Source: an uncultured Candidatus Saccharibacteria bacterium
GTDB lineage: Bacteria; Patescibacteriota; SOKK01
Length of the DNA stretch: 51,615 bases
Assembly: GCA_964518965.1 (NCBI GenBank)
Contig: CAZFJP010000001.1
Location: 1-51,615 of the forward strand
Reading direction: 5' to 3'
The position numbers were made by a program, and so were the translations under genes. Positions 80 to 47,879 of the stretch are shown piece after piece (position 1 is the first letter of the stretch; every line of letters starts with the position of its first letter). The notes under the pieces were generated by a model. It saw only the letters and a program-made list of their open reading frames with translations, did not search any database and was not told the origin of the DNA.

Positions 80-165
80 AAATTAGAAATTAGAATGGAG
101 AAAGTAAGTCAAAAAGTCTTTCTGATTTATTTTCTACATTCTGCATTCTAACTACTTCTACGCTA
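80..165. repeat. Inverted heptamer array
   Basis: AATTAGA AATTAGA ATGGAGA followed by TTTCTAC ATTCTGC ATTCTAA; 80-106 matches 46670-46696 at 26/27 nt. Confidence 0.75.
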
Positions 166-7495: not shown

Positions 7496-9658
<2,163 letters not shown>

Positions 9659-9668
9659 TATTTAATTA

Positions 9669-9730
9669 AATGTAAAATGGATAATGGAGAATGTTGAACA
9701 TTATCCATTATACATTCTACATTCTATATT
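9669..9730. repeat. Inverted heptamer array
   Basis: AATGTAA AATGGAT AATGGAG AATGTTG / ATTATCC ATTATAC ATTCTAC ATTCTAT. Confidence 0.85.
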
Positions 9731-9737
9731 GTTCTAG

Positions 9738-12164
9738 ATGTTTACTAACGACAAGATAAAACCAAGATTGATTACGACTGAAATGGAACAGTCCTATCTG
9801 GACTACGCTATGTCGGTTATTATTGCACGTGCTTTACCCGATGTCCGTGATGGTTTGAAACCAGTTCATCGTCGTATTCTTTATGCAATGCATTCTTTGG
9901 GATTGAAATATTCTGGGAAATTTCGTAAAAGTGCGACAGTTGTCGGGGAAGTTTTAGGTAAATACCATCCGCATGGCGATCTTGCAGTTTATGAATCTTT
10001 AGTGCGTATGGCGCAGGATTTTTCAATGCGTTATCCGTTAGTTGCGGGACAGGGTAACTTTGGTTCTATGGATGGTGATAATGCTGCGGCGATGCGTTAT
10101 ACCGAAGCAAAAACGGCGCAAATTACTGATGAACTGTTGGTTGATATTGAAAAGGAAACTGTTGATTTTATTCCTAATTATGATGGTTCGAAGAAAGAAC
10201 CCAAGGTTTTACCGGCAAAATTACCGCAATTACTTTTGAACGGTACAATGGGTATTGCGGTTGGAATGGCAACAAATATTCCGCCGCATAATTTACGAGA
10301 AGTAGTAGATAGTATTGTTTATTTGATTGAACATCCGGATTCTTCCGTGCGGGATTTAATGCAGTTTGTCAAAGGTCCTGATTTCCCGACCGGAGGGATT
10401 GTTTATAACGAAAAAGATATTGAAGCTGCTTATGCAACTGGCAAAGGCAAAATTGTCGTTCGTGGCAAAGCGGTAATTGAGGAAGTCAAGAAGGATCGTT
10501 TTCGTATTGTAATTACTGAAATTCCTTACCAAGTAAATAAAGCGGAAATGCTGGCAAAAATTGCTAATTTGGTCAAAGAGAAAAAAATTGTTGGCGTTCA
10601 GGATTTACGCGATGAGTCCAATAAAGACGGAATCCAGGTTGTTTTGGAGCTTAGAAAAGGCGCTTTTCCAAACAAAATTTTAAATCAGCTTTATAAATAT
10701 ACCAGCTTACAGGATTCCTTCCATGTGAATATGCTTGCTCTTATTGACGGCATTCAGCCGCAAGTGATGAGTTTGAAGATGATTTTGGAGGAGTACATCA
10801 AGCATCGCAAGGTAGTGGTTACTCGTCGTACTCAATTTGAATTAAAGAAAGCAAAAGAACGTTTGCATATTTTGGAAGGATTGAAAATTGCTTTGGATCA
10901 TTTGGATGCAGTGATTAAAACAATTCGTGCTTCCAAAACCAAAGAAGATGCTCATAAGAATTTGATGAGGAAGTTTAAGCTCTCTGATCGGCAGTCGCAA
11001 GCAATTCTAGAAATGAAATTGCAATCCTTGGCAGCATTAGAGCGGAAGAAAGTGGAAGATGAATATGAAGAGAAGAAAAGGTTGATTGCGGAATTAGAAC
11101 TAATCTTAAAAAGTCCCCAAAAGATTCTAGGGATTATCAAAAGAGAACTCATCGAGCTTAAAAATAAATATGGCGATGATCGTCGCACAGAAGTAGTCAG
11201 ACAGCCGGTTGGTCATTTTGTGCAAGAGGATTTAGTGGCGAACGATCCGATGATTGTTATTTTGACTAAGAGTGGTTATATCAAACGTTTGGCACCCTCT
11301 GTTTATCATGCTCAAAAACGTGGTGGTAAAGGAGTAAGAGGGGTAACTACCCGAGAAGAGGATGTTGTGGAAGAATTAATTTTCACTAATACCCATGATG
11401 ACATTTTGTTCTTCAGTAACAGTGGTAAAGTTTTTCAAGCCAAGGTTTATGAAATTCCAGAAGCAAGTCGTACTGCCAAGGGGCAGTCAGTAATGAATTT
11501 CTTGCAAATGGGAATGGATGAAAAAATTACTGCAGTAGTTAATATTCCTAAGGAAAAGCCATTTAGGTATTTAATGATGATTACCTATAAAGGTGTGGTG
11601 AAAAAAGTTTCTGTGGAAGATTTCAAGCATGTTCGTCGTAGTGGTTTGATTGCGATTAAATTACGACCAGATGATTTCTTGGGATGGGTTTGTGGTACTA
11701 CTTCCGATTGCGAAATTATTTTAGCGACTGCAAATGGTCAAGCGATTCGTTTTAAAGAATCGCAAGTGCGACCGATAGGTCGTAATGCTAGTGGAGTAAG
11801 AGGTATTAGATTAAAAGGTGATGATTATGTTATTGGTGCAAGTAACATTCTAGATCCAAATGCGGATTTGTTAATTGTTACTGAAAATGGTTTTGGGAAG
11901 CGGACAGAATTAAATAAATATAAGGTTCAGGCACGAGGCGGAAGTGGAATTAAGACCGCGAAAATAACCGAGCGCAATGGTAAACTAGTAGATATGCGAA
12001 TTGTTCCAAGTGAGGAAGTAGATTTGATTGCCATTAGTAGTAAAGGACAAATTATTCGTTTACCGATAAAAGGGATCTCCAAACAAGGCAGAGCGACGCA
12101 AGGAGTGCGGATCATGAGGTTAGATGCAGGGGATAAGGTGGCATCGGTGACGTTGGTGGGCTAA
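9738..12164 (+). CDS. gyrA: DNA gyrase subunit A
   Basis: [23 protein letters not shown], GyrA-box QKRGGKG, pinwheel CTD. Confidence 0.97.
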
Positions 12165-14946: not shown

Positions 14947-15010
14947 TGTCATACCTGCGAAAGCAGGCATCCAGAAATGATTCTGGATTCCCGCTTGTGC
15001 GGGAATGACA
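14947..15010. repeat. Composite palindromic element (GTCATTCCCGC...GGGAATGAC class, REP/RPE/dRS3-like)
   Basis: TGTCATACCTGCGAAAGCAGGCATCCAG-AAATGATT-CTGGATTCCCGCTTGTGCGGGAATGACA: two sub-hairpins inside one inverted repeat. Confidence 0.85.
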
Positions 15011-42475: not shown

Positions 42476-42496
42476 CCTGCCTGCCGACAAGGCAGG
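42476..42496. repeat. CYTG-footed mini-palindrome
   Basis: CCTG-CCTGCC-GACAA-GGCAGG. Confidence 0.7.
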
Positions 42497-42537
42497 GAGG
42501 TAACAGGGTAGAGGGCAGAGTTGGGGAGAAAGATATT

Positions 42538-44258: not shown

Positions 44259-46322
44259 ATGGTAAGTATTCTAGCGCAATCAGTTGCAAAGATTTATGGT
44301 GTAGGTCCTCAATATGTCAAACGCCTCAAGCGCTTGGGGATAGAGACAATTGAGGACCTGCTTTGTTATTACCCGAAAAGATATGAGGATTTGACTAAAG
44401 TGAAGAAAGTTTCTGAATTGAAAGAAGATGGTACAGTTCAAACAGTAAAAGTGCGATTGCATGATTTGAGAAATGTACGTACAAGAAAAGGAATGATTAT
44501 TACCAAAGGTTCTTTTGAAGATGATTCTGGTGTTGGACAAGTAGTTTGGTTCAATCAGCCGTTCTTACAAAATGCTTTTCAAAGTGATCGGGAATATTTA
44601 TTAACTGGAAAAGTAAGGGAAGGTTATATTGGACCATTATTGCAAAGTCCGGAATATGAATTGGTAAAAGAAGAGCAATTGCATGCTGGTAGGATCGTGC
44701 CGGTTTATCGAGAAACGGAAGGATTAAGTTCCAAATGGTTACGCTATAAAATGAGTATTATTCTTCCTGCAGCGGAAAAGATGATTGAAGTATTGCCAGA
44801 GAGTATTCTTCGGTCTCAGAAATTGGTAGGAATTAGAGAGGCATTGAAACAAATTCATTTTCCTAGTTCAATGGATAACTTAAGAAAAGCGCGGGAGCGA
44901 ATTGCTTTTGAGGAGATGTTTCTCGTTCAGCTAGTAGCACTGGGAAGCAAGCGAGAGTGGGAAAAGTACGATGCGCCGAAGATTTTCTTCAATAAAACAT
45001 TGGCGCAAGATTTTGTTCGTTCTTTACCCTTTCAATTAACAAAAACCCAAAAGATAGCAGCGTGGGAAATTCTGAAGGATCTTGAAAGGACTACCCCAAT
45101 GAATCGTTTGTTGGAAGGAGATGTCGGCAGTGGCAAAACTGTAGTAGCGGCACTAGCGAGTTTAATGACTGTTAGGAATCATTACCAAGTAGTTCTAATG
45201 GCACCCACCGAAATTCTTGCACAGCAGCATTATCGTACAATTATGAGGTTTTTAAAGCTATTCAAGGTAAAAATAGGACTGTTAACTAGTAAGGAAATAT
45301 TAGATAGTGATGGTAAAAAAATTGCCAAGAAAAAATTAATTGCGAAAATAACTGATAATAAAATTGATTTTTTAATTGGTACTCATGCGTTGATTGAAAA
45401 AAATGTGCAGTTTAATAATTTAGGTTTGGTAATTATTGATGAACAACACCGCTTTGGTGTGGAACAGCGATTGTTATTGCACACCAAAGGCAAAGCACCG
45501 CATTTTTTATCAATGACTGCTACTCCTATTCCACGAACATTAGCTTTATCAATGTTTGGCGATTTGGATATCTCTATTATTAGCGAACTACCAAAGGGCA
45601 GAAAAAAGGTTTTGACAAAAGTAGTTTCTAATGAAAAGCGGCAAGCAGCTTATAAATTTATTCATGACAAAGTAAAAGAAGGCCGACAAGTTTTTGTAAT
45701 TTGTCCGTTGATTGAGGAATCGGATAAGTTGGGTGTCAAAGCGGCAACAAAGGAATACGAGAAGTTATCTCAAAAAGTGTTTACCGATCTTACGGTAGGA
45801 CTACTTCATGGTAGGTTAAAGAAAGACGAGAAGAGCCGGGTAATGGAGTTATTCCGAAAAGGAAAATTAGATATTCTTGTTTCCACGTCGGTTGTGGAAG
45901 TGGGCGTTGATATTCCCAATGCGACCATCATGATGATTGAAGGTGCGGAAAGATTTGGACTGGCGCAACTGCACCAATTCCGCGGACGCGTCGGACGCAG
46001 TATTTATCAATCATATTGTTTTCTTTTTCCGACGGAAATTGAATCAGGCTCGTTAACTAGGTTACGTGCATTAGAAACAATTGATGATGGATTTAAATTA
46101 GCGGAAATTGATTTGGAAAATCGCGGTCCGGGAGAAGTTTATGGCAAAAGCCAAAGTGGCTATTTTTATGAATTTCAAATTGCGAATCCGACGGATATTG
46201 TTTTAACCCAAAGAGCGCGAAAAGAAGCAGAGCGGATTTTGGGTGAAGATCCAGAGTTAAGTAAGTATCCAGAGTTAAAGAAGAAAGTGAAGAGTGTTAA
46301 GTTATTAATGCATCGAGAATAA
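44259..46322 (+). CDS. recG: ATP-dependent DNA helicase RecG
   Basis: GDVGSGKT, DEQHRFG, TATPIPR, QFRGRVGR, RGPGE. Confidence 0.97.
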   Translation: MVSILAQSVAKIYGVGPQYVKRLKRLGIETIEDLLCYYPKRYEDLTKVKKVSELKEDGTVQTVKVRLHDLRNVRTRKGMIITKGSFEDDSGVGQVVWFNQPFLQNAFQSDREYLLTGKVREGYIGPLLQSPEYELVKEEQLHAGRIVPVYRETEGLSSKWLRYKMSIILPAAEKMIEVLPESILRSQKLVGIREALKQIHFPSSMDNLRKARERIAFEEMFLVQLVALGSKREWEKYDAPKIFFNKTLAQDFVRSLPFQLTKTQKIAAWEILKDLERTTPMNRLLEGDVGSGKTVVAALASLMTVRNHYQVVLMAPTEILAQQHYRTIMRFLKLFKVKIGLLTSKEILDSDGKKIAKKKLIAKITDNKIDFLIGTHALIEKNVQFNNLGLVIIDEQHRFGVEQRLLLHTKGKAPHFLSMTATPIPRTLALSMFGDLDISIISELPKGRKKVLTKVVSNEKRQAAYKFIHDKVKEGRQVFVICPLIEESDKLGVKAATKEYEKLSQKVFTDLTVGLLHGRLKKDEKSRVMELFRKGKLDILVSTSVVEVGVDIPNATIMMIEGAERFGLAQLHQFRGRVGRSIYQSYCFLFPTEIESGSLTRLRALETIDDGFKLAEIDLENRGPGEVYGKSQSGYFYEFQIANPTDIVLTQRARKEAERILGEDPELSKYPELKKKVKSVKLLMHRE

Positions 46323-46344
46323 CTATTAACTTCTTTTAAAGGAG

Positions 46345-46374
46345 AAAAAGCAACCTGTAGAAGGTTGCTTTTTT
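46345..46374. terminator. Bidirectional terminator
   Basis: AAAAAGCAACCT-GTAGA-AGGTTGCTTTTTT. Confidence 0.88.
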
Positions 46375-46455
46375 AACTTTTATTAAACTAAAAGATAGTT
46401 CTCTTCTGCTGTTTTTCTAATTTTACTTTTCACGTTCTAAATTCTAACTTATTTT

Positions 46456-46542
46456 TGGTGCCGGGGAGAGGAGTTGAACCCCCAAAGCCTTGCGGCCACG
46501 TGGTCCTAAACCACGCGCGTCTACCAATTCCGCCACCCCGGC
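46456..46542 (-). tRNA. tRNA-Leu(TAG)
   Basis: GCCGGGGTGGCGGAATTGGTAGACGCG, CGTGG-TTTAGGA-CCACG, long variable arm, 3' CCCCGGCACCA; 87 nt. Confidence 0.95.
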
Positions 46543-46591
46543 TTATAAAACAAAACAAAGATTCAGTTTTAAATAAATGATACTAAGTTGG

Positions 46592-46664
46592 CACTCGCGT
46601 CCTGTACCATTATGGCACAGGGTCTACTTGCCCGTCTCTGGCGGGCCAATTCCGCCATCCCGGC
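46592..46664 (-). pseudogene. tRNA-Leu 5' fragment with two palindromic insertions
   Basis: Matches tRNA nt ~1-31 with 2 substitutions once inserts 46601-46623 and 46627-46645 are removed. Confidence 0.8.
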
Positions 46665-46715
46665 TAAATAAATTAGAAATTAGAATGTAGAAAGTAGAAA
46701 CTATTCAAGAATAGA

Positions 46716-46778
46716 TCTGCTGATTCCGCTTGTCCGACAAAGTCCCGCATAAGTGGGACGTAGTCAGGCCACCCCGGC
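46716..46778 (-). pseudogene. tRNA-Leu 5' fragment with 40-nt palindromic insertion
   Basis: GCCGGGGTGG[insert 46768-46729]CGGAATCAGCAGA versus GCCGGGGTGGCGGAATTGGTAGA. Confidence 0.75.
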
Positions 46779-46814
46779 TTAAGCAAGTTATAAGTAATAA
46801 GTAAGAAGTAATAA

Positions 46815-47780
46815 TTATCTAATAAAACAAGCAGTTGCATAATAAGTTCCGCTGCTGGATTTAGCCACTCCCACTCCTACTTTAGTATAATTCCCTAGCA
46901 TATTAGCACGATGACCGGAACTGGCGATCCAGCCATTAACAATGCTTGAAACAATGTTTCCGCCGTTGCGCAGGGCAATATTTTCAGCAGCAGCGGAGTA
47001 GGCAATGCCACTTAAGCGGGGAGAGGGAAAACCGCGGTGATCAAAGAATCCTTGAGTCGCCATGTTACTTGAGTGAGTGCGAGCGCGGCTACTCAAGGTG
47101 CTGTAACTAGCTAGCGCTGATTTTCCTTGTGAAGTACGATAACTGTTAATTAGTCCAATAATCTGACCTTCAATGCTGTAATAATTTGTGGTTGTGGTTG
47201 TGCTTTTATTACTAGTCGTGCTAGTCGTAGTCGTTGTGGTACTAGCGACACTGTCTGTTCTTTCACTGATACTTTGTTTTGCCAACTGAATCGCCTTACG
47301 GAAGTGACCGCGATAGTATTCCTGCTTTGCTTGCTTTAACAAGTTTTTCGCTGTGGTGTTTAAAGCCTGTGCCTCGGCTTTTTTGAGATACTTTCGTGCG
47401 GTTGCAGCATCTCTTGTGAGTTGTTTTTGATATAGATCATATGTCTCAAGGCGAGCGGTGTTAGCTTTATTTTTAGCTTCGCGGAAGCGTTTATCAGCTA
47501 GAGCAATTTTAGCTTCCTTAAGGATTTTTTCTTGTTTGACAAGTTTAATCCCGTAATTTTTTGCTTGGTCAAATTGTTTCTTGCACATCGCAATCGCATT
47601 TTCGGCATTTTGCTTAAGGGTTTCCTCATGGCGCTTAAGAGATTTCTGGCAAGCCAAAACTCCAGTCCCGACCAGAAAGATTCCGATTAATCCTAAAATA
47701 ATTGCGATAATGGTCTCTTTTTTTCTGCCAAAGGCGGATCTGCCTCTGGCGGAGATTTTATTGGAAGCTTTTTTCTTCAT
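46815..47780 (-). CDS. Membrane-anchored CAP (SCP) domain protein
   Basis: TM, helical region, Thr linker; INSYR, HS.NM...FFDH, ENIA, W..S.GHRANML, VGVG. Confidence 0.88.
   Translation of the reverse strand: MKKKASNKISARGRSAFGRKKETIIAIILGLIGIFLVGTGVLACQKSLKRHEETLKQNAENAIAMCKKQFDQAKNYGIKLVKQEKILKEAKIALADKRFREAKNKANTARLETYDLYQKQLTRDAATARKYLKKAEAQALNTTAKNLLKQAKQEYYRGHFRKAIQLAKQSISERTDSVASTTTTTTSTTSNKSTTTTTNYYSIEGQIIGLINSYRTSQGKSALASYSTLSSRARTHSSNMATQGFFDHRGFPSPRLSGIAYSAAAENIALRNGGNIVSSIVNGWIASSGHRANMLGNYTKVGVGVAKSSSGTYYATACFIR
47724..47753. mobile_element. 30-bp double mini-palindrome inserted in frame (encodes SARGRSAFGR)
   Basis: Two 15-mers TCTGCC-AAA-GGCGGA and TCTGCC-TCT-GGCGGA, exactly codons 10-19 of the CAP gene. 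Confidence 0.75.
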
Positions 47781-47879
47781 ATTGATAGATTAAAACATCC
47801 TTATTATATCACAAACCACCTTTTGCATTTTAGAAAGATAAAGGGTAAGATAGTGATGCATTTAATTAATGGAAAAATT

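Follow-up and report, generated by a model that had tools for sequence, protein, structure and literature searches.

The array of tRNA-Leu(UAG) 5' copies at 46456-46778 of the window (the whole stretch of 51,615 nucleotides (nt) analysed here, contig C1 of genome G000) is read, with somewhat more confidence than doubt, as a decayed remnant, now without any open reading frame (ORF), of repeated colonisation by a mobile system made up of an Ssn-like GIY-YIG nuclease and hairpin repeats. As a part of that reading, and held just as firmly, the array would be a stack of dead 5' parts of tRNA-Leu(UAG), the 5' part of the gene having been renewed at least twice. The relics are broken at the hot-spot positions 10/11, 19/20 and 23-24/25 of the tRNA by members of three hairpin families, and the Leu locus is read as an ORF-less remnant because the same anatomy occurs at many tRNA loci together with a GIY-YIG gene of about 80 amino acids (aa). 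The assembly of G000 comprises 18 contigs with 678,645 bp and about 39% G+C and is rated 94% complete. The features of the array are as follows.

46456..46542, minus strand: intact tRNA-Leu(UAG), the working gene (ARAGORN; RF00005 51.9 bits, full length).
46590..46664, minus strand: copy 2, a relic of tRNA-Leu positions 1-32 with two inserts (29/32 identical).
46716 (approx.)..46778, minus strand: copy 3, an older relic of tRNA-Leu positions 1-23 with one insert (20/23 identical).
46627..46645, minus strand: 19-nt insert after tRNA position 19, class A (CCGCC...GGCGG), CCCGCCAGAGACGGGCAAG in tRNA sense and CTTGCCCGTCTCTGGCGGG on the plus strand.
46601..46621, minus strand: 21-nt near-perfect palindrome CCTGTGCCATAATGGTACAGG after tRNA position 23/24, class B-like (CYTGYC...GRCARG), from hairpin folding.
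46729..46768, minus strand: 40-nt insert with two hairpins, placed after position 10 of the tRNA, class C (GACTACGTCCC..GGGAC + CTTTGTC/GACAAG), from sequence and folding.
46406..46455, minus strand: A-rich trailer that contains short repeats of the TTAGAA type and can pair, by complementarity, with the leader 5' of copy 2.
46543..46589, minus strand: 47-nt spacer from copy 2 to the intact tRNA, without leader-type repeats.
46665..46714, minus strand: T-rich leader (TTCTAC/TTCTAA repeats) directly 5' of copy 2, its motif recurring beside other tRNAs.
46779..46823, minus strand: AT-rich repeats of the TTACTT type upstream of copy 3; leaders of this type are found beside tRNA genes in the sister-genus genome G001.

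In tRNA sense, copy 2 keeps positions 1-19 (18/19), 20-24 (TAGAC, 5/5) and 25-32 (6/8), and copy 3 keeps positions 1-10 (10/10) and 11-23 (10/13), so the extra copies are genuine 5' fragments of tRNA-Leu, as the first-pass annotation of this DNA had proposed. A colinear tRNA sequence is regained once the three inserts are cut out, and a target duplication is not needed. The description of the inserts as discrete, precise and confined to the acceptor and D-arm region is thus borne out, with exact junctions everywhere except at the 21-nt insert, where the repeated GT that had been pointed out is seen as a 2-nt AC/GT ambiguity. Both inserts starting with CTTG are indeed followed by CCA on the plus strand, and the distal copy is the shorter and more diverged one. 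The Leu fragments are all 5' parts and lie 50-120 nt apart. Searched against the whole genome, the 19-nt match of copy 2 to the gene (1 mismatch) reaches E = 0.04, but it stands at a distance of 122 nt from the gene. Copy 3 has a 14-nt exact word in common with the tRNA start plus 3 bases upstream, and the chance expectation of such a word within a few hundred bases is, by our rough estimate, about 1e-5 to 1e-6. Copies 2 and 3 are not called as tRNA by ARAGORN or RF00005, and the RF00005 search revealed no hidden or split tRNAs. The TTACTT-type region (query 565-624) has four matches in G001 and three in G035.

The Leu array is not an assembly artefact, an explanation that the first-pass annotation had itself raised. 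In run X1 the array lies in a 16.5-kb contig that covers 45800-47800 with no differences, in run X2 a 4.4-kb contig spans 46300-47800 with no differences, and in run X3, a third sample, a 454-nt contig (46503-46956) bridges copies 2 and 3, again with no differences. X1 and X2 may be the source samples, and the runs that best cover the genome are labelled hot-spring metagenomes. A further run, X14, gave tRNA-like fragments only.

The Leu locus is one case of a wider pattern in this genome. Same-strand 5' relics stand upstream of the tRNA at no fewer than nine loci of the 0.68-Mb genome, none of which has a copy of the 3' end, a result that answers the scan of tRNA loci for partial copies with hairpin inserts that had been suggested in the first-pass annotation. 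When the 45 tRNAs were blasted against the genome and matches inside tRNA genes were set aside, 5' fragments were seen on the same strand ahead of the parent gene for Asp, Val(tac), Thr(cgt), Pro(ggg) (twice), Ile and Leu, and more diverged relics are found at Val(cac), Arg(cct) and Ser(cga), with a second, older relic at the Thr locus. When 14-nt probes from the tRNA ends were scanned, with one mismatch allowed, within 1.5 kb of the 45 tRNAs, the 5'-end probe had ten upstream same-strand matches and one downstream match. Three of these eleven (two upstream, one downstream) are cross-matches of two intact tRNA-Pro genes, and the other eight are relic fragments at seven loci. The 3'-end probe had no match anywhere within that distance. 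The relics start sharply at tRNA position 1 (at least five loci) and mostly end in or near the anticodon loop, and in nearly all of them the D-arm is interrupted by GC-rich hairpins (Asp, Val(tac), Val(cac), Thr (two), Pro (two to three), Ile and Leu). They vary in extent and insert content by locus, and decay grows with distance. All 45 intact tRNAs are without insert.

Some further observations concern tRNA genes of this assembly. An Arg-type 3' relic lies downstream of tRNA-Arg(tcg) at C2:14878-14950, its T-loop split by the hairpins TCCCGCTGTAAAGGCGGGA and TGCCACGTCTTCATGACGTGGC. The window begins inside a tRNA-Met gene (1-68, 92.6% identical over 68 nt to the tRNA-Met on contig C17), indicating that in this assembly contigs break at tRNA loci. 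Neither ARAGORN nor RF00005 found a tRNA-Asn, a gene that may simply be missing from an assembly of this completeness, and tRNA-Ser(cga) at C14:14191-14281 is called by ARAGORN and not by the RF00005 search.

Partial tRNA repeats are also what phage or island integrases leave behind, tRNA genes being classical integration sites, so the Leu fragments might be attachment-site (att) remnants of elements once integrated in tRNA-Leu and later lost. This was rejected and is given next to no weight here. No recombinase or integrase is present among the genes flanking the array, which are recG (44259-46322, plus strand), a CAP-domain ORF (46815-47780, minus strand; domain from Pfam), an oxidoreductase, a Glu/Leu/Phe/Val-type (ELFV) dehydrogenase and an AI-2E transporter. 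What is repeated is the tRNA 5' part and not the 3' part, at spacings of tens of bases; each repeat carries internal hairpin inserts, and nine or more tRNA loci of this 0.68-Mb genome have the pattern in common.

The gene that accompanies the relics encodes a small GIY-YIG protein. Five matches to PF01541 (GIY-YIG) are present in the genome, namely four small ORFs and one protein of 590 aa, which we take to be UvrC-like. All four small ORFs adjoin tRNA genes, three of them lying between a relic and an intact tRNA. An intact ORF of 80 aa stands between the Asp relic and tRNA-Asp, an intact ORF of 86 aa stands between two Pro relics with TCCGCCAGGGGCGGA on both sides, and a frameshifted copy stands between a diverged Ser relic and tRNA-Ser(cga). 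The fourth, a pseudogene at C10:47423-47700 with an in-frame TGA and a frameshift, follows tRNA-Gly(tcc) after about 125 nt, and no tRNA-Gly relic is detectable there. Two of the four are thus pseudogenised, which fits a cycle of gain, decay and loss. The ribosome-binding regions are alike among the small ORFs. The Asp and Pro ORFs match PF01541 with E of about 1e-15, contain no other domain and end after the GIY-YIG domain of about 75 aa. TIGR01453 (NCBIfam) scores 18-20 bits on them, below its cut-off of 56. A PDB sequence search gave no match, and a search for homologous proteins gave four proteins with uninformative names.

As to which half of the Leu unit is original, the leader at 46665-46714, 5' of copy 2, forms a duplex of -27.5 kcal/mol with the trailer of the intact gene at 46406-46455 (shuffle mean -11.9, sd 3.0; 0/300 shuffles reach it), whereas the spacer at 46543-46589 gives -9.5 kcal/mol with the same trailer, a value that 189/300 shuffles equal or better. 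Because the copy 2 leader pairs with the trailer and the spacer does not, copy 2 marks the original 5' end of the unit; it retains the original leader, and the spacer and the present 5' part of the gene are secondary. Copy 3 lies outside this leader-trailer stem, and 60/300 shuffles pair as well as its own leader does. Pairing of leader and trailer as a general rule was dropped, since gene by gene it is significant (z <= -3) for 5/45 tRNAs only. Most tRNA genes of G000 have T-rich short-period repeats (TTTTACA, TTCTACA, TTTTGCN) before them and A-rich complements after them, e.g. at window positions 80-165 and 46406-46455, and the pairing of leader and trailer may instead bracket tRNA clusters.

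That relics lie inside the leader-trailer stem of a transcription unit could also be taken to mean that relic and hairpins together form a functional RNA or DNA leader (a processing platform, terminator or decoy), kept by selection because it serves the expression of tRNA-Leu or controls recombination or transformation. The Leu locus is invariant in three metagenomes, and hairpin repeats around Neisseria genes are reported to modulate transformation via Ssn (PMC11893778). Such a function is nevertheless judged very unlikely, since relic extent and insert content differ by locus and decay with distance, half of the associated ORFs are pseudogenised, and the structure of copy 3 is not above chance (z -1.0). 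No Rfam family supports it either, as a search of 11 loci at E up to 1 returned tRNAs and chance matches only and no family for relics or hairpins.

The inserts of the Leu relics belong, by comparison of sequence patterns and of loci by eye, to repeat families, the three being diverged members of classes A, B and C. The core of the 19-nt insert, CCGCCAGAG, occurs at 18 sites in the genome, and CTTGCCCGCCTAAATTGGCGG, near-identical to this insert type, is found in an unrelated metagenome tRNA-Arg relic. Class A elements sit a few bases earlier than class B in the D-loop at both Val loci, Thr and Pro; at both Val loci the element is about 60 nt long, the two being about 88% alike as we read them. 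The 21-nt palindrome agrees with class B in its CYTG...CARG ends and in its position; class B itself is the 20-nt perfect palindrome CCTGCCTGCCGGCAGGCAGG, present at 14 loci in the genome, 4 of them in tRNA relics. In the relics of Asp and Val(tac) it is placed precisely, with GGTTA on one side and GAGC on the other, and the Ile and Val(cac) relics hold close variants of it. The start of the 40-nt insert, GACTACGTCCC...GGGACTT(T/C)GTC, has three exact copies in the genome (pattern GACTACGYYCC); the other two, on contig C18, follow tRNA-Ala(tgc) and tRNA-Thr(ggt) with nothing between them and the CCA end, and the second arm of the insert is seen again downstream of tRNA-Thr(ggt), in a 3' relic with a T-loop insert that contains it. 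No tetranucleotide is common to all insertion sites when their left flanks are compared. Two elements of these families lie elsewhere in the window, as follows.

42476..42500, no strand assigned: class B-like hairpin CCTGCCTGCCGACAAGGCAGGGAGG, not in tRNA context.
47724..47753, minus strand: class A element TCCGCCAGAGGCAGATCCGCCTTTGGCAGA, in frame in the first codons of the CAP-domain ORF, i.e. a repeat inside a coding region.

At the N-terminus of the CAP-domain ORF, the class A stretch (MKKKASNKISARGRSAFGRKKE...) comes ahead of a hydrophobic stretch. The neighbourhood of tRNAs is enriched in perfect GC-rich hairpins: of the 99 counted in the whole genome, 16 are no more than 400 nt away from a tRNA, and such stretches account for 4.3% of the genome. 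Most of the hairpins are elsewhere. The hairpins are REP-like (repetitive extragenic palindrome) dispersed repeats, for which tRNA relics are one preferred, minority context.

The first-pass annotation had seen in an HUH (Y1) nuclease a plausible mover of such mini-palindromes, which would have hit the working tRNA-Leu repeatedly, each hit being rescued by duplication so as to leave a chronological record. Precise insertion without target duplication is typical of single-strand HUH transposition, and the retention of the original leader by copy 2, which makes the present 5' half secondary, and the greater decay of the distal copy are in keeping with this order of events. The genome also holds a Y1_Tnp (RAYT/IS200-like) ORF with an HUH motif at C6:9347-9976 (flanks 9250-10110), the only HUH/Y1-like ORF found in it. 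This ORF, however, contains and is flanked by GGGGYGRTTCRTGAAYC- and GGTTCACGAACC-type palindromes, which differ from classes A, B and C and form a family apart with a candidate enzyme of its own, and the constant neighbour of the relics is the small single-domain GIY-YIG gene and not Y1. An insertion into a single-copy essential tRNA, moreover, could not be rescued afterwards unless there were several chromosome copies per cell, and no insert is seen in any intact tRNA. The involvement of HUH is therefore considered improbable and the chronology of hit and rescue is not supported as it was stated; the partial duplication may instead belong to the entry of a GIY-YIG cassette. What does survive of that proposal is that the tRNA 5' part and D-arm are hit repeatedly, as the same positions are used at other loci and in other phyla.

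The same layout was observed in other genomes. PF01541 is present in 61/61 genomes of the same phylum, with up to 14 matches per genome. Among 30 GIY-YIG loci from same-phylum genomes, five are followed immediately, on the same strand, by a tRNA, and in two a tRNA lies within about 310 nt on the 5' side, the chance expectation being well under one by our rough estimate. Upstream relics occur at loci L016, L034 and L035, paired hairpins on both sides of the ORF at L026, and 3' relics downstream of the tRNA at L021, L022 and L023. The clearest case is L034, where the 5' half of a tRNA-Glu, its D-loop replaced by an 88-nt insert, is followed by hairpins, the GIY-YIG ORF, a whole tRNA-Glu that has an inverted leader and trailer to itself, and finally the 3' half of a tRNA-Glu with a two-hairpin T-loop insert and a terminator. 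Only about 4 nt of the resident tRNA-Glu are missing, and the cassette of ORF and whole tRNA-Glu lies between its halves.

A seed-and-chain relic finder (score threshold 14, 900 nt per side, other tRNAs masked) was applied to 169 tRNAs of this genome and of loci L002-L122, a set that takes in 80 metagenome loci fetched via RecG, i.e. not chosen by GIY-YIG, in addition to other loci. It gave 34 same-strand relic chains (18 upstream and 16 downstream) versus 4 antisense controls. The relics are polar, with 5' parts upstream and 3' parts downstream (about four exceptions), and the insert positions cluster at 12/13, 17-23, 34-36 and 55/56 of the tRNA. The inserts are tandem hairpins of the (T/C)CCGCC-N3-GGCGG(A/G) or TCCCGC...GCGGGA kind. 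Of the seven upstream relics at least 200 nt from their tRNA, six enclose a sense GIY-YIG ORF, two of these coming from RecG loci, and the seventh is a weak chain.

To extend the comparison beyond the phylum, the ORF of the Asp locus was searched against one-genome-per-species contigs, the nearest homologues having 45-55% identity. Nine loci were returned, eight of them significant, and all eight stand beside a tRNA with relics and hairpins. The hosts are Croceivirga, Joostella, Polaribacter, Owenweeksia, Bdellovibrionales, a gammaproteobacterial metagenome-assembled genome (MAG), Saccharibacteria and Moranbacteria. In Croceivirga and Joostella the order is tRNA-Leu(caa) relic, ORF and intact tRNA, and the relics are split after position 9 and after GGTAGA by hairpins of the CCTGCC...GGCAGG type, the positions being those of Leu copies 3 and 2 here; the hairpin after GGTAGA is CCTGTCTGCCGACAGGCAGG, placed as is the 21-nt Leu insert, and the Croceivirga relic has an extra hairpin within the D-loop. 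In the Saccharibacteria MAG a tRNA-Asn relic carries CCTGCCTGCCGGTAGGCAGG, the class B palindrome of this genome, between GGTA and GAGC, and a second copy downstream is split alike. The gammaproteobacterial locus is at tRNA-Glu and the Bdellovibrionales MAG locus at tRNA-Met with the hairpins TCCGCCACGGCGGA and CCCGCCGTAGGCGGG. Owenweeksia, Polaribacter and the Moranbacteria MAG have 3' relics, with T-loop palindromes in Polaribacter, a large hairpin before the relic in Moranbacteria and a duplicate that takes in the terminator in Owenweeksia. RNA-templated repair from mature tRNA, considered for the sharp start at position 1, was set aside since the 3' duplication at L133 includes the terminator.

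In two Flavobacteriia genomes, 8 of the 11 small GIY-YIG ORFs adjoin tRNAs. At L177 (Croceivirga G301, about 1,832,100-1,833,460), four tandem units of 346 nt follow tRNA-Leu(gag), each made up of a GIY-YIG ORF and a 3' tRNA relic with two T-loop hairpins, and the near-identity of the units points to recent amplification. At L137 (about 1201-1470), L138 (about 1201-1460) and L035 (reverse strand), the GIY-YIG frame runs without stop into the tRNA gene; RNase P cleavage at position 1, if it takes place, would leave the message there without a stop codon.

A tree of the ORFs (26 rows, 82 columns) is poorly resolved, with 4/23 branches starred. In one clade (support 90/96), the Asp ORF of this genome groups with ORFs from Bdellovibrionales, the gammaproteobacterial MAG, Saccharibacteria and flavobacteria, and the tRNAs beside the ORFs of this clade are those for Asp, Met, Glu, Asn and Leu. 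Between hairpin sequence and nuclease lineage there appears to be co-variation.

The nearest known counterpart of the small ORFs is the Ssn family. According to Chenal et al. 2025 (PMC11893778), single-domain GIY-YIG proteins of this family (cd10448) are site-specific nucleases of single-stranded DNA (ssDNA), which bind and cut next to hairpin repeats (NTS/SRM) flanking their own genes, and the repeat-gene-repeat layout is likened there to an insertion sequence. The ORFs of the Asp and Pro loci resemble that description in being proteins of about 80-95 aa with the GIY-YIG domain only (the Leu locus being without ORF), in having, e.g. with TCCGCCAGGGGCGGA at the Pro locus, flanking GC-rich hairpin repeats that are also dispersed in the genome, and in the apparent co-variation of hairpin and nuclease (PMC11893778). 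They differ from it in being nested in partial tRNA-gene duplications, and their membership of cd10448 is a candidate one; tRNA has no mention in the main text of that study and, in the supplements available as text, is named only in protein descriptions (PMC11893778). The published SRM search pattern, HGTCWY..RNCYNB, has a single match in this genome (window 14983-15010) and none in tRNA relics or beside the ORFs, ten Markov controls giving 0-6. The match belongs to the one canonical NTS-like pair of the window (PMC11893778), an inverted pair at 14947-15010 formed by TGTCATACCTGCGAAAGCAGGCATCCAG on the plus strand (14947-14974, a CCTGC-stem variant) and TGTCATTCCCGCACAAGCGGGAATCCAG on the minus strand (14983-15010, the strict match), with no GIY-YIG gene beside it.

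REP sequences and bacterial interspersed mosaic elements (BIME), GTAG- or CGTC-tagged, as described by Di Nocera et al. 2013 (PMC3733652) are comparable as short imperfect palindromes in tens of copies, mostly extragenic, without target duplication and sometimes inside ORFs (here at 47724-47753), and CGTC-tagged REPs are reported there without a dedicated transposase. Classes A, B and C are unlike the REP/RAYT pair in having no RAYT/Y1 association, the gene here being GIY-YIG, and in that their preferred sites include defined positions of tRNA relics (PMC3733652). Phage T4 SegB (PMC2330249) is likewise reported to be a GIY-YIG gene among tRNA genes that secures selfish inheritance of the tRNA region; enzymes of this type have DNA-binding regions and cut double-stranded DNA of a competing phage, whereas the ORFs here are chromosomal, hold the catalytic domain only and stand with tRNA relics and hairpins. 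In tRNA-targeting integrative elements (att duplications) and in the archaeal model of tRNA-gene disruption (Sugahara et al. 2012, PMC3293823), a duplicated tRNA segment also keeps the gene working and loops are preferred; the system here differs in having no integrase and no splicing system, a size of a few hundred bases and relics with internal hairpins.

Of the traits of IS200/IS605-type single-strand transposition, insertion without target duplication is seen here; the sites do not all share a tetranucleotide, and no Y1 gene that would be cognate to these hairpins was found. Homing endonucleases join a nuclease domain to a DNA-binding module, and the ORFs here carry the former without the latter. 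A mobile GIY-YIG ORF of fungal mitochondria, in Allomyces atp6 (Paquin et al., 1994), reportedly brings a replacement gene end while the displaced fragment stays. That case shares with the present one an endonuclease ORF accompanied by a duplicate of part of the target, the old part remaining as a pseudogene fragment beside the restored gene, and it differs in that the targets are organelle protein genes and no hairpin repeats split the relic. In full-text searches, no account was found in which small GIY-YIG genes lie within partial tRNA duplications and the relics are split by hairpins.

For the mechanism, it is proposed that the nuclease acts like the Ssn family, binding its own hairpin repeat in ssDNA and cutting beside it. 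Breaks in exposed loops of the tRNA gene would be mended by partial duplication or by an incoming copy, the import of which would be a recombination anchored in the conserved tRNA, and the outcome would be an intact tRNA downstream (at some loci upstream) together with a hairpin-carrying relic. The ORF would be expressed from the tRNA promoter, would then degenerate and would finally be deleted, while relic and hairpins stay. At the Leu locus a GIY-YIG gene would accordingly once have been present, and we infer that the hairpins are the cognate repeats of the nuclease and not independent squatters. The partial duplication may itself be part of the entry of the GIY-YIG cassette into a tRNA gene, the hairpins coming with it or later; this is close to the remnants of integrated elements that the first-pass annotation had named as evidence against itself, though no integrase is involved.

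Several results weigh against the reading of the Leu array as the remnant of such a system. When a profile of 14 tRNA-linked ORFs was run by hmmsearch over the six frames of 46400-46900, only negative scores were obtained, so that the link between the Leu locus and GIY-YIG is drawn from its anatomy. Folded as DNA and compared with 200 shuffles, the 19-nt insert (z -1.8, 15/200) and the 40-nt insert (z -1.8, 9/200) are weak hairpins when taken alone; a strong one is formed by the 21-nt insert (-6.1 kcal/mol, z -4.9, 0/200 shuffles as good). That annotation had also asked whether the inserts are unique in the genome; they are members of the repeat families counted above, but none has an exact second copy in the genome (blastn-short, nothing >14 nt). 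The hairpins here lie outside the published SRM search pattern. A protein of 80 aa without a DNA-binding domain is not a classical homing endonuclease, and since the intact tRNA keeps any target within the tRNA, simple homing logic fails on immunity. The ORFs do not group by the identity of their tRNA, which speaks against a single fixed target sequence; this fits switching between tRNAs and leaves the specificity unexplained. In addition, no empty or filled alternative alleles, joints or indels of the array were seen in the three runs (X3 giving partial cover), and close relatives of the Leu locus were found neither among the 80 RecG loci (best 45-59% aa identity; 1/80 with a tRNA-Leu(tag) near recG) nor in the 40 nearest species genomes, which gave tRNA-level matches only.

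The distribution of class B weighs in the same direction. With one mismatch allowed, the palindrome is present in 91/301 same-phylum genomes, with a maximum of 39 per genome (reversed control 0), and in a sample of 30 copies, 9 lie within 1.5 kb of a tRNA and 3 are accompanied by a GIY-YIG ORF. As class B is mostly away from tRNAs, neutral relics could have received hairpins without a nuclease gene playing any part. A rival explanation is ordinary duplication, in which unequal crossing-over or slippage between repeat-rich leaders and trailers made the copies and REP-like hairpins, which would prefer exposed tRNA-loop sequences in neutral copies, came later, with never a GIY-YIG gene at the locus. 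Besides class B as a general intergenic repeat, the abundance of short repeats in tRNA flanks and the lack of a detected ORF remnant at the Leu locus speak for it, as do nearly full-length disrupted copies beside intact genes, such as L059 (positions 3-12, a 30-nt insert, positions 13-74) and a downstream copy of that kind at L139. It is regarded as rather unlikely all the same, because the flanks of the three Leu units are unlike, with different leader types, and hence not those of simple recent tandem copies, and because it has to meet the sharp start at tRNA position 1, the strong polarity of 5' and 3' relics, the GIY-YIG ORF inside nearly all distant relics and the same palindrome family accompanying the same ORF subfamily across phyla.

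Beyond the Leu locus, a wider proposal is put forward tentatively, being thought rather less probable than its opposite: single-domain GIY-YIG nucleases and their cognate hairpins may be a self-propagating element that specifically colonises tRNA genes across phyla (this small-genome lineage, Saccharibacteria, Moranbacteria, Bacteroidota, Bdellovibrionota and Pseudomonadota), entering at loops and regenerating an intact tRNA, either through partial duplication or with a copy that it brings. Such an element would take over the tRNA promoter and would stack hairpin-split relics into arrays like that of Leu.

If this wider proposal is true, tRNA genes would be serially renewed by a selfish element of a 'break and restore' type, and relic arrays would be datable records of invasion. 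Stand-alone GIY-YIG genes, which are abundant and mostly uncharacterised, would gain together with hairpin repeats a genomic niche, the tRNA gene, and a testable life cycle, and the Ssn ssDNA nucleases and 'orphan' palindromic repeats would be tied to an insertion strategy that spares an essential gene. Hairpin-guided precise cutting of ssDNA beside conserved tRNA sequence would also be of practical interest for ssDNA tools. If there is only REP-like decay of neutral duplicates, the result would be a useful annotation rule, though an ordinary one. An element that breaks and restores tRNA genes would explain the litter of tRNA fragments at the tRNA loci of small-genome bacteria and Flavobacteriia, fragments by which tRNA annotation, finders of att sites and islands, and assembly are confused.

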